Of a DNA stretch of 64,000 nt, positions 4,216 to 32,746 are shown piece by piece. Each line of letters opens with the position of its first letter. The stretch's first letter is position 1. Made by a program: the position numbers and the translations under genes. Location: NCBI RefSeq assembly GCF_003334785.1, contig NZ_QOWV01000013.1; one strand, given 5' to 3'. The notes under the pieces were generated by a model. That model was not told the origin of the DNA and made no database searches. It saw nothing but the letters and a program-made list of their open reading frames with translations. Origin of the DNA: Escherichia coli. GTDB lineage: Bacteria; Pseudomonadota; Gammaproteobacteria; Enterobacterales; Enterobacteriaceae.

Positions 4216-4237
4216 CGGATGCGCTAGCATCCGGCAT
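4216..4237. terminator. Perfect palindrome gccggatgcgctagcatccggc between convergent trmA and yijD; likely bidirectional terminator hairpin
   Basis: 22-nt inverted repeat seen directly in the 39-bp trmA/yijD gap. Confidence 0.5.
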
Positions 4238-12680: not shown

Positions 12681-12683
12681 AAC

Positions 12684-12907
12684 GTAGGCCGGATAAGGCG
12701 CTCGCGCCGCATCCGGCGCTGTTGCCAAACTCCAGTGCCGCAATAATGTCGGATGCGATGCTTGCGCATCTTATCCGACCTACAGTGACTCAAACGATGC
12801 CCAACCGTAGGCCGGATAAGGCGCTCGCGCCGCATCCGGCACTGTTGCCAAACTCCAGTGCCGCAATAATGTCGGATGCGATACTTGCGCATCTTATCCG
12901 ACCTACA
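12684..12907. repeat. Two tandem REP/BIME units (about 101 bp each, period 123 bp) in the argE-ppc spacer
   Basis: gtaggccggataaggcgctcgcgccgcatccggc...atcttatccgacctaca occurs twice almost identically (12684..12784 and 12807..12907). Confidence 0.85.
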
Positions 12908-13154: not shown

Positions 13155-15806
13155 ATGAACGAACAATATTCCGCATTGCGTAGTAATGTCAGTATGCTCG
13201 GCAAAGTGCTGGGAGAAACCATCAAGGATGCGTTGGGAGAACACATTCTTGAACGCGTAGAAACTATCCGTAAGTTGTCGAAATCTTCACGCGCTGGCAA
13301 TGATGCTAACCGCCAGGAGTTGCTCACCACCTTACAAAATTTGTCGAACGACGAGCTGCTGCCCGTTGCGCGTGCGTTTAGTCAGTTCCTGAACCTGGCC
13401 AACACCGCCGAGCAATACCACAGCATTTCGCCGAAAGGCGAAGCTGCCAGCAACCCGGAAGTGATCGCCCGCACCCTGCGTAAACTGAAAAACCAGCCGG
13501 AACTGAGCGAAGACACCATCAAAAAAGCAGTGGAATCGCTGTCGCTGGAACTGGTCCTCACGGCTCACCCAACCGAAATTACCCGTCGTACACTGATCCA
13601 CAAAATGGTGGAAGTGAACGCCTGTTTAAAACAGCTCGATAACAAAGATATCGCTGACTACGAACACAACCAGCTGATGCGTCGCCTGCGCCAGTTGATC
13701 GCCCAGTCATGGCATACCGATGAAATCCGTAAGCTGCGTCCAAGCCCGGTAGATGAAGCCAAATGGGGCTTTGCCGTAGTGGAAAACAGCCTGTGGCAAG
13801 GCGTACCAAATTACCTGCGCGAACTGAACGAACAACTGGAAGAGAACCTCGGCTACAAACTGCCCGTCGAATTTGTTCCGGTCCGTTTTACTTCGTGGAT
13901 GGGCGGCGACCGCGACGGCAACCCGAACGTCACTGCCGATATCACCCGCCACGTCCTGCTACTCAGCCGCTGGAAAGCCACCGATTTGTTCCTGAAAGAT
14001 ATTCAGGTGCTGGTTTCTGAACTGTCGATGGTTGAAGCGACCCCTGAACTGCTGGCGCTGGTTGGCGAAGAAGGTGCCGCAGAACCGTATCGCTATCTGA
14101 TGAAAAACCTGCGTTCTCGCCTGATGGCGACACAGGCATGGCTGGAAGCGCGCCTGAAAGGCGAAGAACTGCCAAAACCAGAAGGCCTGCTGACACAAAA
14201 CGAAGAACTGTGGGAACCGCTCTACGCTTGCTACCAGTCACTTCAGGCGTGTGGCATGGGTATTATCGCCAACGGCGATCTGCTCGACACCCTGCGCCGC
14301 GTGAAATGTTTCGGCGTACCGCTGGTCCGTATTGATATCCGTCAGGAGAGCACGCGTCATACCGAAGCGCTGGGCGAGCTGACCCGCTACCTCGGTATCG
14401 GCGACTACGAAAGCTGGTCAGAGGCCGACAAACAAGCGTTCCTGATCCGCGAACTGAACTCCAAACGTCCGCTTCTGCCGCGCAACTGGCAACCAAGCGC
14501 CGAAACGCGCGAAGTGCTCGATACCTGCCAGGTGATTGCCGAAGCACCGCAAGGCTCCATTGCCGCCTACGTGATCTCGATGGCGAAAACGCCGTCCGAC
14601 GTACTGGCTGTCCACCTGCTGCTGAAAGAAGCGGGTATCGGGTTTGCGATGCCGGTTGCTCCGCTGTTTGAAACCCTCGATGATCTGAACAACGCCAACG
14701 ATGTCATGACCCAGCTGCTCAATATTGACTGGTATCGTGGCCTGATTCAGGGCAAACAGATGGTGATGATTGGCTATTCCGACTCAGCAAAAGATGCGGG
14801 AGTGATGGCAGCTTCCTGGGCGCAATATCAGGCACAGGATGCATTAATCAAAACCTGCGAAAAAGCGGGTATTGAGCTGACGTTGTTCCACGGTCGCGGC
14901 GGTTCCATTGGTCGCGGCGGCGCACCTGCTCATGCGGCGCTGCTGTCACAACCGCCAGGAAGCCTGAAAGGCGGCCTGCGCGTAACCGAACAGGGCGAGA
15001 TGATCCGCTTTAAATATGGTCTGCCAGAAATCACCGTCAGCAGCCTGTCGCTTTATACCGGGGCGATTCTGGAAGCCAACCTGCTGCCACCGCCGGAGCC
15101 GAAAGAGAGCTGGCGTCGCATTATGGATGAACTGTCAGTCATCTCCTGCGATGTCTACCGCGGCTACGTACGTGAAAACAAAGATTTTGTGCCTTACTTC
15201 CGCTCCGCTACGCCGGAACAAGAACTGGGCAAACTGCCGTTGGGTTCACGTCCGGCGAAACGTCGCCCAACCGGCGGCGTCGAGTCACTACGCGCCATTC
15301 CGTGGATCTTCGCCTGGACGCAAAACCGTCTGATGCTCCCCGCCTGGCTGGGTGCAGGTACGGCGCTGCAAAAAGTGGTCGAAGACGGCAAACAGAGCGA
15401 GCTGGAGGCTATGTGCCGCGATTGGCCATTCTTCTCGACGCGTCTCGGCATGCTGGAGATGGTCTTCGCCAAAGCAGACCTGTGGCTGGCGGAATACTAT
15501 GACCAACGCCTGGTAGACAAAGCACTGTGGCCGTTAGGTAAAGAGTTACGCAACCTGCAAGAAGAAGACATCAAAGTGGTGCTGGCGATTGCCAACGATT
15601 CCCATCTGATGGCCGATCTGCCGTGGATTGCAGAGTCTATTCAGCTACGGAATATTTACACCGACCCGCTGAACGTATTGCAGGCCGAGTTGCTGCACCG
15701 CTCCCGCCAGGCAGAAAAAGAAGGCCAGGAACCGGATCCTCGCGTCGAACAAGCGTTAATGGTCACTATTGCCGGGATTGCGGCAGGTATGCGTAATACC
15801 GGCTAA
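13155..15806 (+). CDS. ppc: Phosphoenolpyruvate carboxylase (883 aa)
   Basis: [29 protein letters not shown].. ..GMRNTG, 883 aa. Confidence 0.96.
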
Positions 15807-17935: not shown

Positions 17936-18787
17936 ATGTATCACGACGTCAGCTATCTGCTCTCCCGCCTGATCAACGGCCCGCTGTCCCTGCGCCAGAT
18001 TTACTTTGCCAGCAGTAACGGCCCGGTGCCCGATCTTGCGTATCAGGTCGATTTTCCACGGCTGGAAATTGTGCTGGAAGGTGAGTTTGTTGATACCGGC
18101 GCTGGAGCAACGTTAGTTCCCGGCGATGTGCTGTACGTTCCTGCTGGTGGCTGGAATTTTCCACAATGGCAAGCCCCCGCTACTACCTTTAGCGTGCTGT
18201 TTGGCAAACAGCAACTCGGCTTCAGCGTCGTGCAATGGGATGGCAAACAATATCAAAATCTGGCGAAGCAACACGTCGCCCGACGCGGCCCACGCATAGG
18301 TTCTTTTCTGCTACAAACGCTCAATGAAATGCAAATGCAGCCGCAGGAGCAGCAAACGGCAAGGCTTATCGTCGCCAGCCTGCTTAGCCACTGCCGCGAT
18401 TTGCTTGGCAGCCAAATCCAGACCGCCTCACGCAGCCAGGCACTATTTGAAGCTATTCGCGATTATATCGACGAACGCTATGCCTCCGCGCTTACCCGCG
18501 AATCTGTTGCACAGGCGTTTTATATTTCGCCAAATTACCTCTCGCACCTGTTTCAAAAAACGGGGGCCATTGGTTTTAACGAATACCTGAATCACACGCG
18601 ACTGGAGCACGCTAAGACGTTATTGAAAGGCTATGACCTGAAGGTAAAAGAAGTGGCGCACGCCTGCGGCTTTGTCGACAGCAACTACTTCTGCCGTCTG
18701 TTTCGTAAAAACACCGAACGCTCGCCGTCGGAATATCGCCGGCAGTACCACAGCCAACTGACAGAAAAACCGACTACTCCAGAATAA
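17936..18787 (+). CDS. yijO: AraC-family transcriptional regulator (283 aa)
   Basis: 283-aa ORF with C-terminal AraC HTH (..YISPNYLSHLFQKTGAIGFNEYLNHTRLEHAKTLL..). Confidence 0.88.
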   Translation: MYHDVSYLLSRLINGPLSLRQIYFASSNGPVPDLAYQVDFPRLEIVLEGEFVDTGAGATLVPGDVLYVPAGGWNFPQWQAPATTFSVLFGKQQLGFSVVQWDGKQYQNLAKQHVARRGPRIGSFLLQTLNEMQMQPQEQQTARLIVASLLSHCRDLLGSQIQTASRSQALFEAIRDYIDERYASALTRESVAQAFYISPNYLSHLFQKTGAIGFNEYLNHTRLEHAKTLLKGYDLKVKEVAHACGFVDSNYFCRLFRKNTERSPSEYRRQYHSQLTEKPTTPE

Positions 18788-19115
18788 GATGGGTTTGCTG
18801 CGGCGCAGAAAGCACTTTGCGCACCGCGCTCATTACCCGCTGCGGCTCACGCAGGAATGCGTAGATGCTGCATTGCACATAGCGGCAATGTTCAAATCGC
18901 TCGGCACCGGCAAGCTCGATATCCGTAATCAACAGAGCAACATCCGCCCGGCGGATATCCTCATCCGCTAAACGATTCTCCGTTCCCAGCGCGCCCTGAG
19001 TTTCAATGCTGACTCCCCACTTCTCTAACAGGCACAACTTTTCCAGCCGTTCCGCCGCCATATAAGTATGCGCCACGCCGCTTACGCAGGCGGTTACTGC
19101 CACCAGGTATGCCAT
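18774..19115 (-). CDS. frwD: PTS fructose-like EIIB component (113 aa)
   Basis: ORF contains MAYLVAVTACVSGVAHTYMAAERLEKL (PTS IIB Cys motif); annotated start internal to the 134-aa ORF. Confidence 0.88.
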   Translation of the reverse strand: MAYLVAVTACVSGVAHTYMAAERLEKLCLLEKWGVSIETQGALGTENRLADEDIRRADVALLITDIELAGAERFEHCRYVQCSIYAFLREPQRVMSAVRKVLSAPQQTHLILE

Positions 19116-19116
19116 T

Positions 19117-19995
19117 TTAACCTCCCACGGTAACCTGAAGTCCGGCCCGTTCTGCCATTTCGCGCATCGTTGCCACATCAGCTGACGACGGCGCAGGCAC
19201 CTCTTTCATCGACCATGTTTTCCCCAGCAGGCGGTATTTCGGTTCGCCGTACTGATGAAACGGTAACAGATGGATCTGCCTGATATTCAGCGGGATCAGT
19301 ACATCCAGCGCCTGCTGCATATTCTCCCGGCTGAGCGTGAAACCAGGGATCAGCGGTAAACGCGGGATCACGTTGACGCCCTCACTCACCAGCAAACGCA
19401 GATTCTCCAGCACGCGTGGCAGGTTCATCTTCACCACATCCCGCGCCTGAGTCGCGTCCATAATTTTTAAATCGAACAACACTTCATCGCACAATTTCGC
19501 CAGCGGTAATAGCTTGCTGGCTGGTGCGTCTCCGGCAGTTTCAATGGCGCATGACACACCCCACAGCCGCAGTCGCTGTAAAAAACGGGTAGCAAACTCC
19601 GCCTGCATTAACACTTCGCCGCCAGAAAGCGTGACGCCGCCGCCGGACGTGCGAAAGAAAATGTCATCTTTCATCACTTCCCGTTCCAGAGCGTCAAGGC
19701 TGATATCGCGACCAATCCGTTCAAACGCCCCGGAGGGGCATTCATCCGCATCACGCAAACATTTCGCACAGTGCAGACATTTCGCCTCTCTGCGTACCGT
19801 CTGGATTTTGCCGGAGATCGACTCCGGATTAGCACACCACGGGCAAAGATGCGGACAGCCTTTAAAAAAGACCACCGTACGAATGCCCTCGCCGTCATTC
19901 AGTGAATAACGCTGAATGTTGAAAATGCGCGCCACATCATCGCGGCGCGTTTCCACAACGTTACAGCTGATGCGCTGTCCGGCGGATGATGTCAT
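19117..19995 (-). CDS. pflC: Glycyl-radical enzyme activase, radical SAM (292 aa)
   Basis: ORF contains MTSSAGQRISCNVVETRRDDVARIFNIQRYSLNDGEGIRTVVFFKGCPHLCPWCANPES (CxxxCxxC radical-SAM motif). Confidence 0.9.
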   Translation of the reverse strand: MTSSAGQRISCNVVETRRDDVARIFNIQRYSLNDGEGIRTVVFFKGCPHLCPWCANPESISGKIQTVRREAKCLHCAKCLRDADECPSGAFERIGRDISLDALEREVMKDDIFFRTSGGGVTLSGGEVLMQAEFATRFLQRLRLWGVSCAIETAGDAPASKLLPLAKLCDEVLFDLKIMDATQARDVVKMNLPRVLENLRLLVSEGVNVIPRLPLIPGFTLSRENMQQALDVLIPLNIRQIHLLPFHQYGEPKYRLLGKTWSMKEVPAPSSADVATMREMAERAGLQVTVGG

Positions 19996-22258
19996 CCTGG
20001 ATCTCCTTCGACAGTTCGACAAAGAAGGCGCTGTATCCGGCAACGCGCACCACCAGCCCGGCATAATCTTGTGGGCGCTGTTGCGCTTCCCGCAACGTGT
20101 CGGCGTTCACCACGTTAAACTGAATATGTTGTAACTTAAGCTGGGTAAACGCCCGTAAGAAGTCGGCCAGTTTGCGTAATCCTGCTTCACCTTCCAGGGT
20201 CGCCGGAGTGAATTTCACGTTCAGCAACGTACCGTTAGACAGCAGCGTGTTATCGAGCTTACTGACTGACTTCAGTACCGCTGTTGGCCCTTGTGCGTCC
20301 TGGCCCAGCATGGGTGACAAGCCGCCGTCTGCCAGCTGTTCTCCGGCAAAACGACCGTCTGGCGTCGCGCCAACCACCGATCCCAACGGGACGTGAGCAG
20401 AAACGGTATACGATCCCGGCGTGAAGTAGCCGCCGCGCGGGTTCTGGTATTTTTCCACTTCTTTGCAGTAGTGGCGCAACAGTTCGGCGCTGATGTTATC
20501 CACCTCGTCGATATCGTTACCGTATTTCTCGAAGCGGTTAATTAAGCGAGCGCGGACTTTTTCGCCTTCTGGCGTTGCGAAGTTGGCTTTTAATACCGAC
20601 AGCAATTCGTCAAAACTTAAACGCTGTTGCTCAAAAACCATCCCTTTCAACGCATGGAGAGAATCGCTCAGGTTGGCGATACCGATCCCCTGTACGCCGG
20701 AGAAGTTATAACGCGCGCCGCCATCGGTAATATCGCGGCCTTTTTCCAGACAATCGCTGATAAACGATGAGAGCAGCGGTACAGGTGCCCAGTCGCGATG
20801 GCCGATATCACAAATATTGCTGCCCTCAACCATCAGGGTGATGTAGTGGCTGATCTTGGCGCGGATCTGCTCCAGTAAACCTTCATAAGTCAGCGCAGCA
20901 TTGCCTTCATTTTCATGCAGGCAGATTTCCATCACTTTCAGCAGATTAAACATCGCGATGTCATGCAAGCCGTAGGTTCTGCCGGGAATAGATAATTCCA
21001 CACAGCCCACTACGGAATAGTCGCGCGCATCTTCCAGCGAAACGCCACGGTTGAGGAACGCTGGCACCACCACTTCATCGTTAAAGATTTGCGGAATACC
21101 GGTGCCGAAGCGAATGGTTTCGGCGGTTTTCATCAGGAACGGCGTGTCGATCAAGGCGTTAGTGCGCACGCCGAGGTTCGGTTGCGGTAATTGCACGCTT
21201 TGATAGGCGTCAAGGCAAAGGAACGAAAGCACGTTCACCGCGCTACGTCCGTTCTCGGTTAACCCGCCGAGCAGTGCGGTATAGCCGGTCGGGAAACCGG
21301 CGAAATAACGCGCGCTACTGGTGGAGCGCAACAGCACGATGTCGTTGCATTTCACCCATAAAGATTCGAGCAGTTCTTTCAGGAACGCCGCATCTTCGCC
21401 CTGGGTTAATGATGTCTAATAGAACGGCAACATATACTGGTCGAAGCGCCCCAACGATAGCGAACTGGCGTTGGATTCGTATTGCAGAATGATGTTCATG
21501 TACCAGAATAACTGGCACGCCTGCCAGAACGTCTGCGGCTTATGTTGCGCGTTATGGCGGGAGATCTCTGCAATAGTCAGCAGCTCTTCGCGACGCTGGG
21601 CATCTGTGCAGTTTGCCGCCATCGTTTCCGCCAGTTCGGCGTAACGCAAAATGTGTTTCTGCGAGGCTTCCAGCAGTAACAACGCGGCCTGATAAAAGTG
21701 ATTCTCCGGCTGTTGCTGACAATGTTGCTGCATCTGTGCCACCAGCTCACCCAGCCCGTGATTCAACAGGCGTGGGTAATCAATAATAATGTGCCCCTGG
21801 CCTTTATCCGTCTGGTTGATGCTGAAAATCTGCGTGTTGGTCGCGGCTTTTACTTCATCTGTCATCTGCCCGTTGATGAAATCTTTCATCGAACGTTTTT
21901 CCCAGTACGGGAACAACTCTTCACGGTAGATACGTTTATCTTCTTCGCTGATAGCAAAGCGGTCCTGCGGACGCGTCGGGAATTGATCCAGCTCTTTCAG
22001 CAGCCAGTAAGGGTCCATTTCCGGCGACATAATCCCGGCGCGCGGTTTTACGGTGCGGTTACCGGCAATCAGTTCTTCATCACGAATCGAAATTTCAACA
22101 TGTTCAAGGATATACGCTGTTGCTTTCGCCCGGCGCAATATCACCGGTTCGCCTTCGGTTTGCCGATGGCTGGCGGTATAAAGCAGCGCCCGCTCCAGCG
22201 AGATTTCACGGGTATTGGCAAACAGTGCAGTTTTGAGGCGAGAGATACGATTCGTCAT
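19961..22258 (-). pseudogene. pflD: Pyruvate formate-lyase-like glycyl radical enzyme PflD, interrupted by an in-frame TAG at 21416..21418 (280-codon N-terminal ORF, 464-codon remainder including the glycyl-radical C-terminus)
   Basis: ORFs 21416..22258 (MTNRISRLKTALFANTREISLERALLYTASHRQ..) and 19961..21355 (..RVAGYSAFFVELSKEIQDDIIRRTAHQL) share one frame; the 20 intervening codons read TSLTQGEDAAFLKELLESLW with no other stop; total 766 codons equals intact 765-aa PflD. Confidence 0.8.
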
Positions 22259-22308
22259 GAGGAACTCCTGTGGGAAAGCGAACCCGCCCTTGCGAGCGGG
22301 AGAAGAAC

Positions 22309-22629
22309 TTAAGCGGTTTGCGCCAGGTGAGCTTCAATTTTGCTCATAATGGCGTCAGCACGTTTTACTGCATCGCTGATGTTGACGCGCACGATGGTCT
22401 TGCCAGCAAAACGCTCTTCAAACTTGATGCCGATATCTTTGGTCAGAATCACCATATCAGCGCTCGCCACATCTTCCGCAGTCAGTTCATTTTCCAGACC
22501 AATTGACCCCTGGGTTTCTACTTTCACTTCCCAGCCTTTCGCTTTCGCGGCACTTTCCAGCGCCTCTGCTGCCATATAGGTATGGGCAACACCTGAAGGA
22601 CATGCGGTTACTGCAATAATTTTCGTCAT
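22309..22629 (-). CDS. frwB: PTS fructose-like EIIB component (106 aa)
   Basis: MTKIIAVTACPSGVAHTYMAAEALESAAKAKGWEVKVETQG.., 106 aa. Confidence 0.9.
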   Translation of the reverse strand: MTKIIAVTACPSGVAHTYMAAEALESAAKAKGWEVKVETQGSIGLENELTAEDVASADMVILTKDIGIKFEERFAGKTIVRVNISDAVKRADAIMSKIEAHLAQTA

Positions 22630-22643
22630 GGCTCGTTCCTCAA

Positions 22644-23723
22644 TTAATTAATTTCAAAATCCAAATCCAGGTCGTCTTCTTTTTCATCAGTCGAAGACCC
22701 ATTTTTACGCGCCAGACTTTTCAGCACGTTCACACAAACAGCCGTCACCACTGCTCCGACAGCCACTGCTGCGATATAACCCAGCTTGCCTTCAACCACC
22801 GGCAGCACAATCAGACCACCCCAGCCTGCATAGCACTGCGCACCGACCAGCGCCGCAGTTACTGCACCACAAACTGAACCGACCATGATGGAAGGAATGA
22901 CACGCAGCGGATCGGCAGCGGCGAAAGGAATCGCCCCTTCAGTAACGCCAACACAGCCCATCACCAGTGTCGCTTTGCCGGTTTCGCGCTCTTCTGCGGA
23001 GAAATTTTTACGACCAATCAGCGTCGCCAGCCCCATCCCCAGCGGCGGGATACAAATACCCACGGCAGCGATGGCCACCACGGTATAAACACCCTGAGCA
23101 ACGCAAATCAGCATGAAGGCATAGGCCACTTTGTTAACCGGACCGCCCATATCGAACGCCAGCATCAGACCCATGATCACCGCCAGCATAACAATGCTGC
23201 CCTGCTGCATCCCCTGAAGCCACTGAGTCAGGCTGTTGGTCAACGCCCCTACAGGCTCGCCCAAGCCCCACATCATGATGCCTGCGGTAATCAGTGTGCC
23301 GACGATAGGAATAATGAAGATAGGCATCACCGAGCGCAGAACTTTATGCACCGGAATTTTCTTCAGGTAATGCACCACGATGCCGCCGATAATCCCGGCG
23401 ATCAGTGCACCAAAGAAGCCCGCACCAAAGCTGTTACCAACCCAGGCACCGATAGCGCACGGAGCCAGCGCAGAACGCTCTGCAATGGAATAACCGATGT
23501 ACGCTGCGAGGAAAGGCACCATCAGCGTCAAGCCCGCAACGCCGATATCAAACAGTTTTTTCAGATTTGGATCGGCTACGGCATCCGGCACTGCGCCTTT
23601 GCCATACAACATGACGGAAACCGCCAGCAAAATACCGCCCGATACCACGAAGGGAATCATGTGTGAAACGCCCGTCATTAAATGCTGACGGGTATTTTTC
23701 AGGATCTGCACCAACTCATTCAT
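22644..23723 (-). CDS. frwC: PTS fructose-like EIIC permease (359 aa)
   Basis: 359-aa polytopic membrane ORF MNELVQILKNTRQHLMTGVSHMIPFVVSGGILLAV.. Confidence 0.9.
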   Translation of the reverse strand: MNELVQILKNTRQHLMTGVSHMIPFVVSGGILLAVSVMLYGKGAVPDAVADPNLKKLFDIGVAGLTLMVPFLAAYIGYSIAERSALAPCAIGAWVGNSFGAGFFGALIAGIIGGIVVHYLKKIPVHKVLRSVMPIFIIPIVGTLITAGIMMWGLGEPVGALTNSLTQWLQGMQQGSIVMLAVIMGLMLAFDMGGPVNKVAYAFMLICVAQGVYTVVAIAAVGICIPPLGMGLATLIGRKNFSAEERETGKATLVMGCVGVTEGAIPFAAADPLRVIPSIMVGSVCGAVTAALVGAQCYAGWGGLIVLPVVEGKLGYIAAVAVGAVVTAVCVNVLKSLARKNGSSTDEKEDDLDLDFEIN

Positions 23724-24031
23724 AAGCTGCTCCCGGGCTTGCGAAAGCCCATGTCCATATTTTTGATGGAGGAAACAATAGGCAATCGCAGGCGGAGCAA
23801 ACAGTGGATAAAAAGGCCATTTACTGGACTTTTGTAATATCAGTACAAAAATGCGATCCGCCTCATAACTTGCGATAAACCGGAAGCATGCCGCAAAACA
23901 GCGTCTTGTGAGACGCGTCGCAAATTGACGGTTACATTACATTTGTCCAGCTTTTGGCAGATTTGTCACATGGCAGGCCGTTGCCGTGCGCTCTTATCCT
24001 GTAAACAGAAAACCGTACCGGGAGAGAGGCA

Positions 24032-26533
24032 ATGGCCCTGATTGTGGAATTTATTTGTGAGCTACCTAACGGCGTACATGCGCGTCCGGCAAGCCACGTT
24101 GAAACGCTGTGTAATACTTTTTCATCACAAATTGAGTGGCATAACCTGCGCACTGACCGCAAGGGCAACGCCAAAAGCGCCCTTGCGCTGATTGGCACCG
24201 ATACGCTGGCGGGCGATAACTGCCAGTTACTGATTTCCGGGGCCGACGAACAGGAAGCGCACCAGCGTTTAAGCCAATGGCTGCGCGATGAATTCCCCCA
24301 CTGCGATGCGCCGCTGGCGGAAGTTAAATCTGACGAACTGGAACCACTGCCGGTTTCACTGACCAATCTGAATCCGCAAATTATCCGCGCCCGCACCGTG
24401 TGCAGCGGTAGTGCAGGCGGCATTCTGACGCCGATCTCTTCTTTAGATCTCAATGCGCTGGGTAATCTTCCCGCAGCCAAAGGCGTTGACGCCGAGCAAT
24501 CCGCACTGGAAAACGGCCTGACGCTGGTACTGAAAAACATTGAGTTTCGTCTGCTGGATAGCGACGGTGCTACCAGCGCGATTCTGGAAGCTCACCGATC
24601 CCTGGCTGGCGATACTTCCCTGCGCGAACATTTACTGGCAGGCGTCAGCGCCGGATTAAGCTGCGCCGAAGCAATTGTTGCCAGCGCGAATCACTTTTGC
24701 GAAGAGTTTTCCCGTTCCAGCAGCAGCTACCTGCAAGAACGTGCCCTGGACGTACGCGACGTCTGCTTCCAGTTACTCCAGCAAATCTACGGTGAGCAAC
24801 GCTTCCCGGCACCGGGCAAACTGACGCAGCCCGCCATTTGTATGGCTGATGAACTGACCCCCAGCCAGTTCCTCGAACTGGATAAAAATCACCTCAAAGG
24901 ATTGTTGCTCAAAAGCGGCGGCACCACCTCACATACGGTGATCCTTGCCCGTTCGTTCAACATTCCAACGCTGGTTGGTGTGGATATTGATGCCCTTACT
25001 CCGTGGCAGCAACAAACGATTTATATCGACGGCAACGCCGGGGCGATTGTGGTTGAGCCAGGGGAAGCCGTAGCTCGTTATTATCAGCAAGAAGCCCGCG
25101 TACAGGACGCCCTGCGTGAGCAACAGCGTGTCTGGCTGACCCAACAAGCCCGTACCGCTGACGGTATCCGCATTGAAATTGCCGCTAACATCGCTCACTC
25201 CGTGGAAGCGCAGGCCGCATTCGGCAATGGTGCGGAAGGCGTTGGTTTGTTCCGCACTGAAATGCTCTATATGGATCGCACCAGCGCACCGGGCGAAAGC
25301 GAGTTGTACAACATTTTTTGTCAGGCGCTGGAATCCGCCAACGGACGCAGCATTATTGTGCGCACTATGGACATTGGCGGCGACAAACCCGTTGATTATC
25401 TGAACATTCCCGCAGAGGCAAACCCGTTCCTCGGTTATCGCGCCGTGCGTATTTATGAAGAGTACGCGTCGTTGTTTACCACGCAGCTACGGTCGATCCT
25501 CCGCGCCTCCGCTCACGGCAGCCTGAAAATCATGATCCCGATGATCTCCTCAATGGAAGAGATCTTATGGGTGAAAGAAAAACTGGCGGAAGCCAAACAG
25601 CAACTACGTAACGAACACATTCCGTTTGATGAGAAAATCCAGCTCGGCATCATGCTGGAAGTGCCGTCGGTGATGTTCATCATCGATCAATGCTGCGAAG
25701 AGATTGATTTCTTTAGTATTGGTAGTAATGACCTGACGCAGTATCTGCTGGCGGTGGATCGCGATAACGCTAAGGTTACTCGTCACTACAACAGCCTGAA
25801 TCCGGCATTCTTGCGGGCGCTCGATTACGCCGTGCAAGCGGTGCATCGCCAGGGCAAATGGATTGGTCTGTGCGGTGAGCTGGGAGCGAAAGGTTCCGTG
25901 CTGCCGTTGCTGGTCGGCTTAGGGCTGGATGAACTCAGCATGAGCGCACCATCAATTCCGGCGGCGAAAGCTCGGATGGCGCAACTTGATAGCCGTGAGT
26001 GCCGCAAGTTGCTCAACCAGGCAATGGCCTGCCGTACTTCGCTGGAAGTGGAACACCTGCTGGCGCAATTCCGCATGACCCAACAAGACGCACCGCTGGT
26101 CACCGCCGAGTGCATCACACTGGAAAGCGACTGGCGCAGCAAAGAAGAAGTGCTCAAAGGCATGACCGATAACCTGCTGCTGGCGGGCCGCTGCCGCTAT
26201 CCGCGTAAACTGGAAGCCGACTTGTGGGCGCGCGAGGCCGTTTTCTCTACCGGTCTGGGCTTTAGTTTTGCCATTCCACACAGCAAATCAGAACACATTG
26301 AGCAATCCACCATCAGCGTGGCGCGTCTGCAAGCGCCGGTGCGCTGGGGCGATGATGAAGCGCAATTCATCATTATGTTAACCCTGAACAAACACGCTGC
26401 GGGCGATCAGCATATGCGCATTTTCTCGCGCCTCGCTCGCCGCATCATGCACGAAGAATTCCGTAACGCGCTGGTTAACGCCGCCTCTGCCGACGCTATC
26501 GCCAGCCTGCTGCAACATGAACTGGAACTGTAA
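24032..26533 (+). CDS. ptsA: Multiphosphoryl transfer protein, HPr-EI-EIIA fusion (833 aa)
   Basis: [26 protein letters not shown] (HPr-like) followed by an Enzyme I-like PEP-utilising domain and a C-terminal IIA-like domain; divergent from frwC. Confidence 0.9.
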
Positions 26534-32472: not shown

Positions 32473-32746
32473 TTATAATTGAATTAATCCACGGATGCGA
32501 TAGTTGAGATCTTACATATTGTTGGTTAAAGAGATGTAGATCAAATTGATCTTAATTAAGCTTTTTTGATTATGTCCGAATTCGGACAAATGCTTTATAA
32601 AAAAGGGATTTAGCTTCATATCCTTCAAGTAATGAGGGAGAAAACAAGGCTGATAACCTTATTTTCCCGCCCTCATTTCGAGGCAGCATTTTGTTCTCTG
32701 TTTAAAATTTGTGATCACTGTGTGATTTTCACAAAAGCCACACTAT

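Follow-up and report, generated by a model that had tools for sequence, protein, structure and literature searches.

A C-to-T amber mutation at codon 281 of pflD in a wild Escherichia coli lineage, probably an ordinary pseudogenisation

A single in-frame TAG within the pflD gene of the 64-kb stretch of Escherichia coli DNA analysed here (hereafter the window, meaning that whole stretch) raises the question of whether this strain can still make the glycyl-radical enzyme PflD and, with it, the questions of whether the stop codon is genuine and how the lineage came to carry it.

The interrupted pflD frame and its genomic setting

On the minus strand, pflD extends from an ATG at position 22258 to the native TAA that ends at 19961, a frame of 2298 nt or 766 codons in which the sequence itself, the ORF list and the translation agree on a single internal stop, codon 281 [Table 1]. 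The stop leaves two minus-strand ORFs in one frame, 21416..22258 (280 aa followed by TAG) and 19961..21355 (464 aa, with a GTG start), between which lie the TAG and then 20 sense codons (TSLTQGEDAAFLKELLESLW). The first-pass annotation of this DNA had described the same arrangement, and every item of it, from the single TAG and the spacing of the two ORFs to the combined length, was reproduced. Base-by-base comparison found A at plus-strand position 21418 of the window and G in both MG1655 and NCTC9038, the latter being the nearest complete genome to the window, a difference that, read on the coding strand, turns CAG into TAG. The first-pass annotation gave K-12 a glutamine codon here; MG1655 indeed reads CAG and not TAG, and the comparison likewise agrees with the proposed single C-to-T nonsense change in an otherwise intact 765-aa PflD. 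The amber is the sole pflD coding difference from NCTC9038, the remainder of the gene past the stop being identical to that genome and still in frame, with no second stop and no frameshift. Relative to MG1655, pflD has two base differences, one of which is a synonymous change in the codon for G385 at 21104. A premature in-frame stop at a codon that is a sense codon in close relatives, in a gene otherwise collinear with theirs, is what a nonsense pseudogene would show. The amber is read directly from the sequence, so no comparison with chance expectation applies.

Table 1. Coordinates, in the window, of the amber codon, the parts of pflD on either side of it and the neighbouring operon genes.
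Feature	Position	Strand	Observation
pflD amber codon, TAG in place of CAG (Gln281)	21416..21418	minus	Sequence and translation; comparison with both references
pflD codons 1-280	21419..22258	minus	Sole part translatable from the native start; N-terminal 280 positions of the PFL-like domain
pflD remainder, codons 282-765 and TAA	19961..21415	minus	Now untranslated; Cys419 codon at 21002-21004, Gly741 codon at 20036-20038
pflD codon 285, 13 nt past the amber	21404..21406	minus	21405 = pflD nt 854; ACC (Thr) in the window, ATC (Ile) in the second TAG clone
pflC, radical-SAM activase, 292 aa	19117..19995	minus	Intact by translation; no difference from MG1655
frwD, PTS IIB component, last operon gene	18774..19115	minus	Intact; no differences from NCTC9038 or MG1655
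frwB, PTS IIB component, upstream of pflD	22309..22629	minus	Intact; identical to NCTC9038 and MG1655
frwC, PTS IIC component, first operon gene	22644..23723	minus	A252T (C to T at 22970) relative to NCTC9038 and MG1655

In collinear order but reversed orientation relative to MG1655, the window matches the murI–kdgT region of E. coli, and the annotation of the collinear NCTC9038 locus places pflD within the gene order frwC-frwB-pflD-pflC-frwD. The last 35 nt of pflD are shared with the start of pflC, which is served by a ribosome-binding site of its own (AAGGAG) in the 3' end of pflD, 7 nt before the pflC ATG; the equivalent gene in related loci carries the Pfam domains Fer4_12 and Radical_SAM. 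A radical-SAM activating enzyme thus lies next to the interrupted gene, its sequence identical to that of MG1655, and the earlier statement that pflC and frwD remain intact stands for both genes. In the frwB-pflD spacer (22283-22300, minus strand), a hairpin of high GC content, CCCGCTCGCAAGGGCGGG, and a T-containing tract after it lie 25 nt before the pflD start. Both MG1655 and NCTC9038 have this element unchanged; it might dampen read-through from frwB to pflD.

Over 44 kb the window differs from NCTC9038 by 10 substitutions and one indel, and over its full 64 kb it differs from MG1655 by 20 substitutions and one extra 123-bp REP-containing unit; several synonymous differences from MG1655 are common to the window and NCTC9038. 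As judged from these comparisons, the host is closely related to K-12 yet distinct from it, with a wild-type-like phylogroup A background, and a laboratory supE or supF background is therefore unlikely. The 123-bp unit lies in the argE-ppc spacer (12683-12907), where it is present 1.8 times; NCTC9038 is alike in this respect and MG1655 has one copy fewer. At the position of NCTC9038 equivalent to 38362 of the window, in yiiX, that genome has one base fewer (its yiiX measures 645 nt, against 609 nt in MG1655), probably reflecting a frameshift or homopolymer error of this PacBio-era reference rather than of the window.

Apart from the amber, five coding sites distinguish the window from both MG1655 and NCTC9038 (22970 in frwC, 29124 in yijF, 34660 and 34004 in metL, and 14435 in ppc). 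All are GC-to-AT changes, and they comprise frwC A252T, yijF V177M and metL H587Y together with synonymous changes at ppc Q427 and metL R805; those at 14435 (ppc) and 22970 (frwC) are both present in a contig of the assembly ERR271234. Two intergenic differences between katG and metF, 87 bp apart at 32608 (T to A) and 32695 (G to T), are likewise unlike MG1655 and NCTC9038, and both occur in strain JKHS016, suggestive of a small imported tract and not of new mutations. The GC-to-AT bias (seven of the nine differences from both references in the first 36 kb), along with the fact that many of the changes are non-synonymous, prompted us to consider chemical mutagenesis or a mutator background; the idea was dropped as the alleles at 4225, 32608 with 32695, 44976 and 54097 are also found in other wild genomes. 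Sharing of these SNPs was tested by joined 55-mers with forced-mismatch spacers; those at 14435, 22970, 29124 and 34004 are at most putatively private.

Predicted consequences for PflD and its operon

Intact PflD consists, by Pfam, of a PFL-like domain (residues 1-626) and a Gly_radical domain (residues 645-747), with the cysteine of the GCVE motif at residue 419 and the glycine of the RVAGY motif at residue 741. From general knowledge of glycyl-radical enzymes we take these two residues to be the thiyl and glycyl radical sites, respectively. Both of them, as well as the entire Gly_radical domain, lie past codon 281 and are absent from the 280-aa product, and neither the glycyl-radical motif (RVxG) nor the catalytic cysteine is found in what is translated. 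The first-pass annotation had predicted the loss of the C-terminal glycyl-radical domain, a prediction that the positions of the domain and of Gly741 confirm and to which the position of Cys419 adds the loss of the active-site cysteine. Scoring against the NCBIfam equivalog model for PflD (NF007437, cut-off 1109 bits) gave a concordant picture: intact MG1655 PflD reaches 1724.8 bits, the 280-aa product 605.4 bits (profile positions 1-280 of 765) and the downstream 464-aa ORF 1056.7 bits, the latter two falling below the cut-off. Neither fragment thus gives a full-length match to NF007437 or to TIGR01774, the model for the PFL2-glycerol dehydratase subfamily of glycyl-radical enzymes, and at the DNA level the identity of the locus as pflD is unambiguous. 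Translation would stop after 280 of 765 residues and, barring suppression of the stop, no active enzyme is predicted.

For a long time the annotation of PflD read putative formate acetyltransferase, with no known function (PMC5600444). According to a 2025 review (PMC12441222) that cites Ma et al. (JACS 2024), PflD cleaves 1,5-anhydromannitol-6-phosphate, and its paralogue YbiW (PflF) cleaves 1,5-anhydroglucitol-6-phosphate, both to 1-deoxyfructose-6-phosphate and both after phosphorylation by the PTS. In that newer description PflD is a dehydratase-type glycyl-radical enzyme and not a formate acetyltransferase (PMC12441222); PDB entry 8yjo is titled 'Probable dehydratase PflD'. The K-12 protein (b3951, NP_418386.1; structure 8yjo) is encoded at the same locus, in the same gene order and by the same 2298-nt frame as in the window, with identical neighbours pflC, frwD and frwB, but is full-length owing to CAG at codon 281, whereas the product of the window ends at residue 280. 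The nonsense change would accordingly deprive the frw/pflDC sugar-alcohol pathway of the enzyme that cleaves 1,5-anhydromannitol-6-phosphate. YbiW belongs to the same family and follows the same pathway logic, PTS uptake and then radical C-O cleavage, in the account given by PMC12441222; it appears among the PDB homologues as 8id7 and 8yjn. Its locus lies outside the window, however, and its substrate is a different epimer, and it would not be expected to replace PflD for anhydromannitol.

The effects of the amber may extend to the genes downstream. The 1.4 kb of mRNA past the stop would be free of ribosomes, and Rho-dependent polarity would then probably reduce the expression of both pflC and frwD. 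One stretch some 230 nt past the stop is moderately C-rich and G-poor (37% C, 21% G), and this composition, together with general knowledge of transcriptional polarity, suggests that the two genes, though intact, may be under-expressed; the strong ribosome-binding site of pflC itself speaks against such an effect. A consensus scan for internal promoters and terminators that might alter polarity yielded nothing informative.

Distribution of the amber allele and its two haplotypes

The allele was sought with a 55-base query centred on the SNP at 21418, such that each 28-mer seed had to include the variant base. TAG was present in none of the 5,426 complete RefSeq E. coli genomes, and the query with the C restored (CAG) was found in 5,384 of them, in agreement with the first-pass reading of TAG as a nonsense change from CAG. 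An exact-sequence look-up of the 280-aa product in a much larger assembly collection found it in 39 blocks, and it is recorded on 28 contigs; the blocks include NCBI assemblies (including GCA_917051225.1 and GCA_966652705.1) and the Logan assemblies ERR271234, ERR15466661, ERR15466750, ERR15466644, SRR18003277, SRR28811438, SRR33821964 and ERR9384385. All eight further full-length pflD copies that were aligned have TAG at codon 281, and the amber is thus reproducible in independent data. Over 15,574 bp the ERR271234 contig and the window are 100% identical, the ppc and frwC SNPs included, and the SRR28811438 contig, which shares frwC A252T with it and with the window, differs from the window by two SNPs in 8,263 bp. 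A search of the literature for this allele, for pflD pseudogenes and for pflD nonsense alleles found nothing specific.

The remaining background is distinct. Eight contigs (L005, L007-L010, L012-L014), mutually identical wherever they overlap, represent a second TAG clone whose flanks are 0.7-0.9% diverged from the window (155 mismatches in 20.8 kb, for example), and which is nonetheless the same as the window across 19556-24816 except at 22970, where frwC A252T is absent, and at 21405, in codon 285 of pflD [Table 1]. The combination of CAG at codon 281 with ATC at codon 285 occurs in three complete genomes, including that of MB19, an isolate from poultry in Cuba. MB19 differs from the second TAG clone by 12 mismatches in 19.4 kb, one of which is at 21418 and seven of which fall within one REP element. 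All four combinations of the alleles at codons 281 and 285, sites 13 bp apart, exist. Since the nearest relative of each TAG clone has CAG together with the matching codon-285 allele, the simplest history, reconstructed from these haplotypes, is that the identical C-to-T nonsense change most likely arose twice, independently. A single origin followed by transfer on a very short conversion tract, with an end in the 13 bp that separate codons 281 and 285, is the less likely of the two histories.

Origin of the allele and significance

Together, these observations make it very probable that a genuine, heritable and tolerated C-to-T amber inactivates pflD in this lineage. A spontaneous C-to-T transition would have turned the CAG codon for Gln281 into an amber in a wild phylogroup A lineage of E. 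coli, and the loss of pflD would have been neutral or nearly so, as its persistence and recurrence suggest. The allele appears to be old enough to have been sampled repeatedly and to have acquired extra SNPs nearby. In laboratory culture, a missense change that pflD carried as a passenger mutation had no phenotypic effect (PMC12416847). In molecular terms the change is of the same class as the classical CAG-to-TAG ambers of the lacI amber collection, a G:C to A:T transition that converts a Gln codon to UAG, but it differs from these in being found in wild isolates, without laboratory selection, and in having no hotspot motif.

Truncated forms of other lengths fall in the same cluster of proteins as the pflD product, namely 285 aa (P0003, 15 contigs), 355 aa (P0014, 27 contigs), 344 aa (P0015, six contigs) and 337 aa (P0002, a frameshift form, six contigs). 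Like the amber, these are independent loss-of-function alleles each found on several contigs, and they differ from it in position and background; as predicted from the protein products, they show that pflD has been repeatedly inactivated in nature. We note that the CAG codon for Gln286 lies inside a Dcm site, CCAGG (21399-21406, aaCCCAGGg, pflD codons 285-286), a sequence that is a classical hotspot of 5-methylcytosine deamination, and that the 285-aa form ends just before Gln286, as would be expected of such deamination judging from the length of that protein.

That the same nonsense change is found on two haplotypes, each with close CAG relatives, and that at least four other truncating alleles circulate, might be taken as the mark of selection instead of drift, the loss of PflD being adaptive, or of a mutational hotspot at codon 281. 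The window clone moreover carries a second change in the operon, frwC A252T. The sequence around the amber does not favour a hotspot, no Dcm CCWGG motif being present at codon 281 and no inverted or quasi-palindromic repeat within ±80 bp of it, and no hotspot mechanism was apparent there. Nor is the recurrence itself very surprising, since pflD is often hit and only 56 GC-to-AT transitions in the gene are able to create a stop, so that, with many loss-of-function events sampled, a coincidence would not be very improbable. Two of the six changes of the lineage fall in the frw operon, which is not significant by our own estimate (p ~0.07), and the allele is rare, being absent from the complete genomes and recorded on 28 contigs in a very large collection. 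We consider adaptive loss or a hotspot to be improbable, though it is the least improbable of the alternatives to a neutral amber.

A second alternative is that the amber is read through and the gene remains functional, whether by a suppressor tRNA or by a near-cognate tRNA-Gln that would provide a low level of full-length PflD. A supE-type tRNA-Gln could in principle suppress CAG-derived ambers; it is well established that glutamine would be inserted at UAG by supE-type or near-cognate decoding, recreating the native protein exactly, and the 484 codons downstream have stayed in frame and free of other lesions. An intact downstream frame is, however, also what is expected of a young pseudogene, and basal readthrough of UAG is typically below about 1%, at which a near-cognate tRNA-Gln restores the native residue at trace level. 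The wild-type-like host is no laboratory derivative of K-12, the 64-kb window contains no tRNA gene (possible suppressor loci, glnV and tyrT among them, lie outside it), and a stop found in 0 of 5,426 complete genomes, where CAG prevails, is not a conserved recoding or readthrough site. Functional readthrough therefore appears quite unlikely.

Less likely still is an error of sequencing, base-calling or assembly, or another artefact of the record, behind which the true genome would read CAG. The absence of TAG from every complete RefSeq genome lends this some colour, a single-base substitution being the smallest artefact possible. Against it, the identical allele recurs across several projects, in assemblies made independently and drawn from NCBI as well as Logan, and the 15.6-kb ERR271234 contig matches the window with zero differences while sharing its ppc and frwC SNPs. 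The base-call or assembly error that the first-pass annotation had named as the way in which it might be wrong is thereby excluded for practical purposes.

The two remaining explanations we regard as barely credible. Deliberate introduction of the amber into a laboratory strain, by base editing or as a site for a non-canonical amino acid, would fit the CAG-to-TAG change typical of cytosine base editing and amber-codon engineering, but not the occurrence of the allele in two natural-looking backgrounds and many unrelated sequencing runs, the lack of vector or scar sequences, or a 64-kb region set apart from its closest relatives by no more than scattered SNPs, of which several are present in other wild isolates. 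A functional split enzyme, in which the 280-aa piece would assemble with a re-initiated C-terminal piece, draws on the prediction by gene callers of a 458-aa downstream ORF with PFL-like and Gly_radical domains, but no Shine-Dalgarno-like sequence precedes any in-frame GTG or TTG codon (302, 308 and 310) in the first 80 codons past the stop, which makes separate translation of the C-terminal part unlikely, at least 20 barrel residues would be missing, neither fragment reaches the NF007437 cut-off, and split enzymes are, to our knowledge, without precedent in the glycyl-radical family.

On the preferred reading of a genuine and tolerated amber, pflD is here probably a young pseudogene, the product of ordinary, neutral pseudogenisation, and should be flagged as such in the annotation of this lineage. 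The predicted phenotype is an inability to ferment 1,5-anhydromannitol anaerobically by the recently described radical glycolysis-like route. Several independent truncating alleles, together with the amber on two haplotypes, fit weak or conditional selection on this pathway. Were certain gut or animal niches instead to favour the loss, or the mutated cytosine to be an unrecognised hotspot, pflD would be a gene that adaptive loss strikes repeatedly. As it stands, the amber is an ordinary and well-understood kind of mutation in a dispensable sugar-pathway gene, and current understanding is unchallenged by it.
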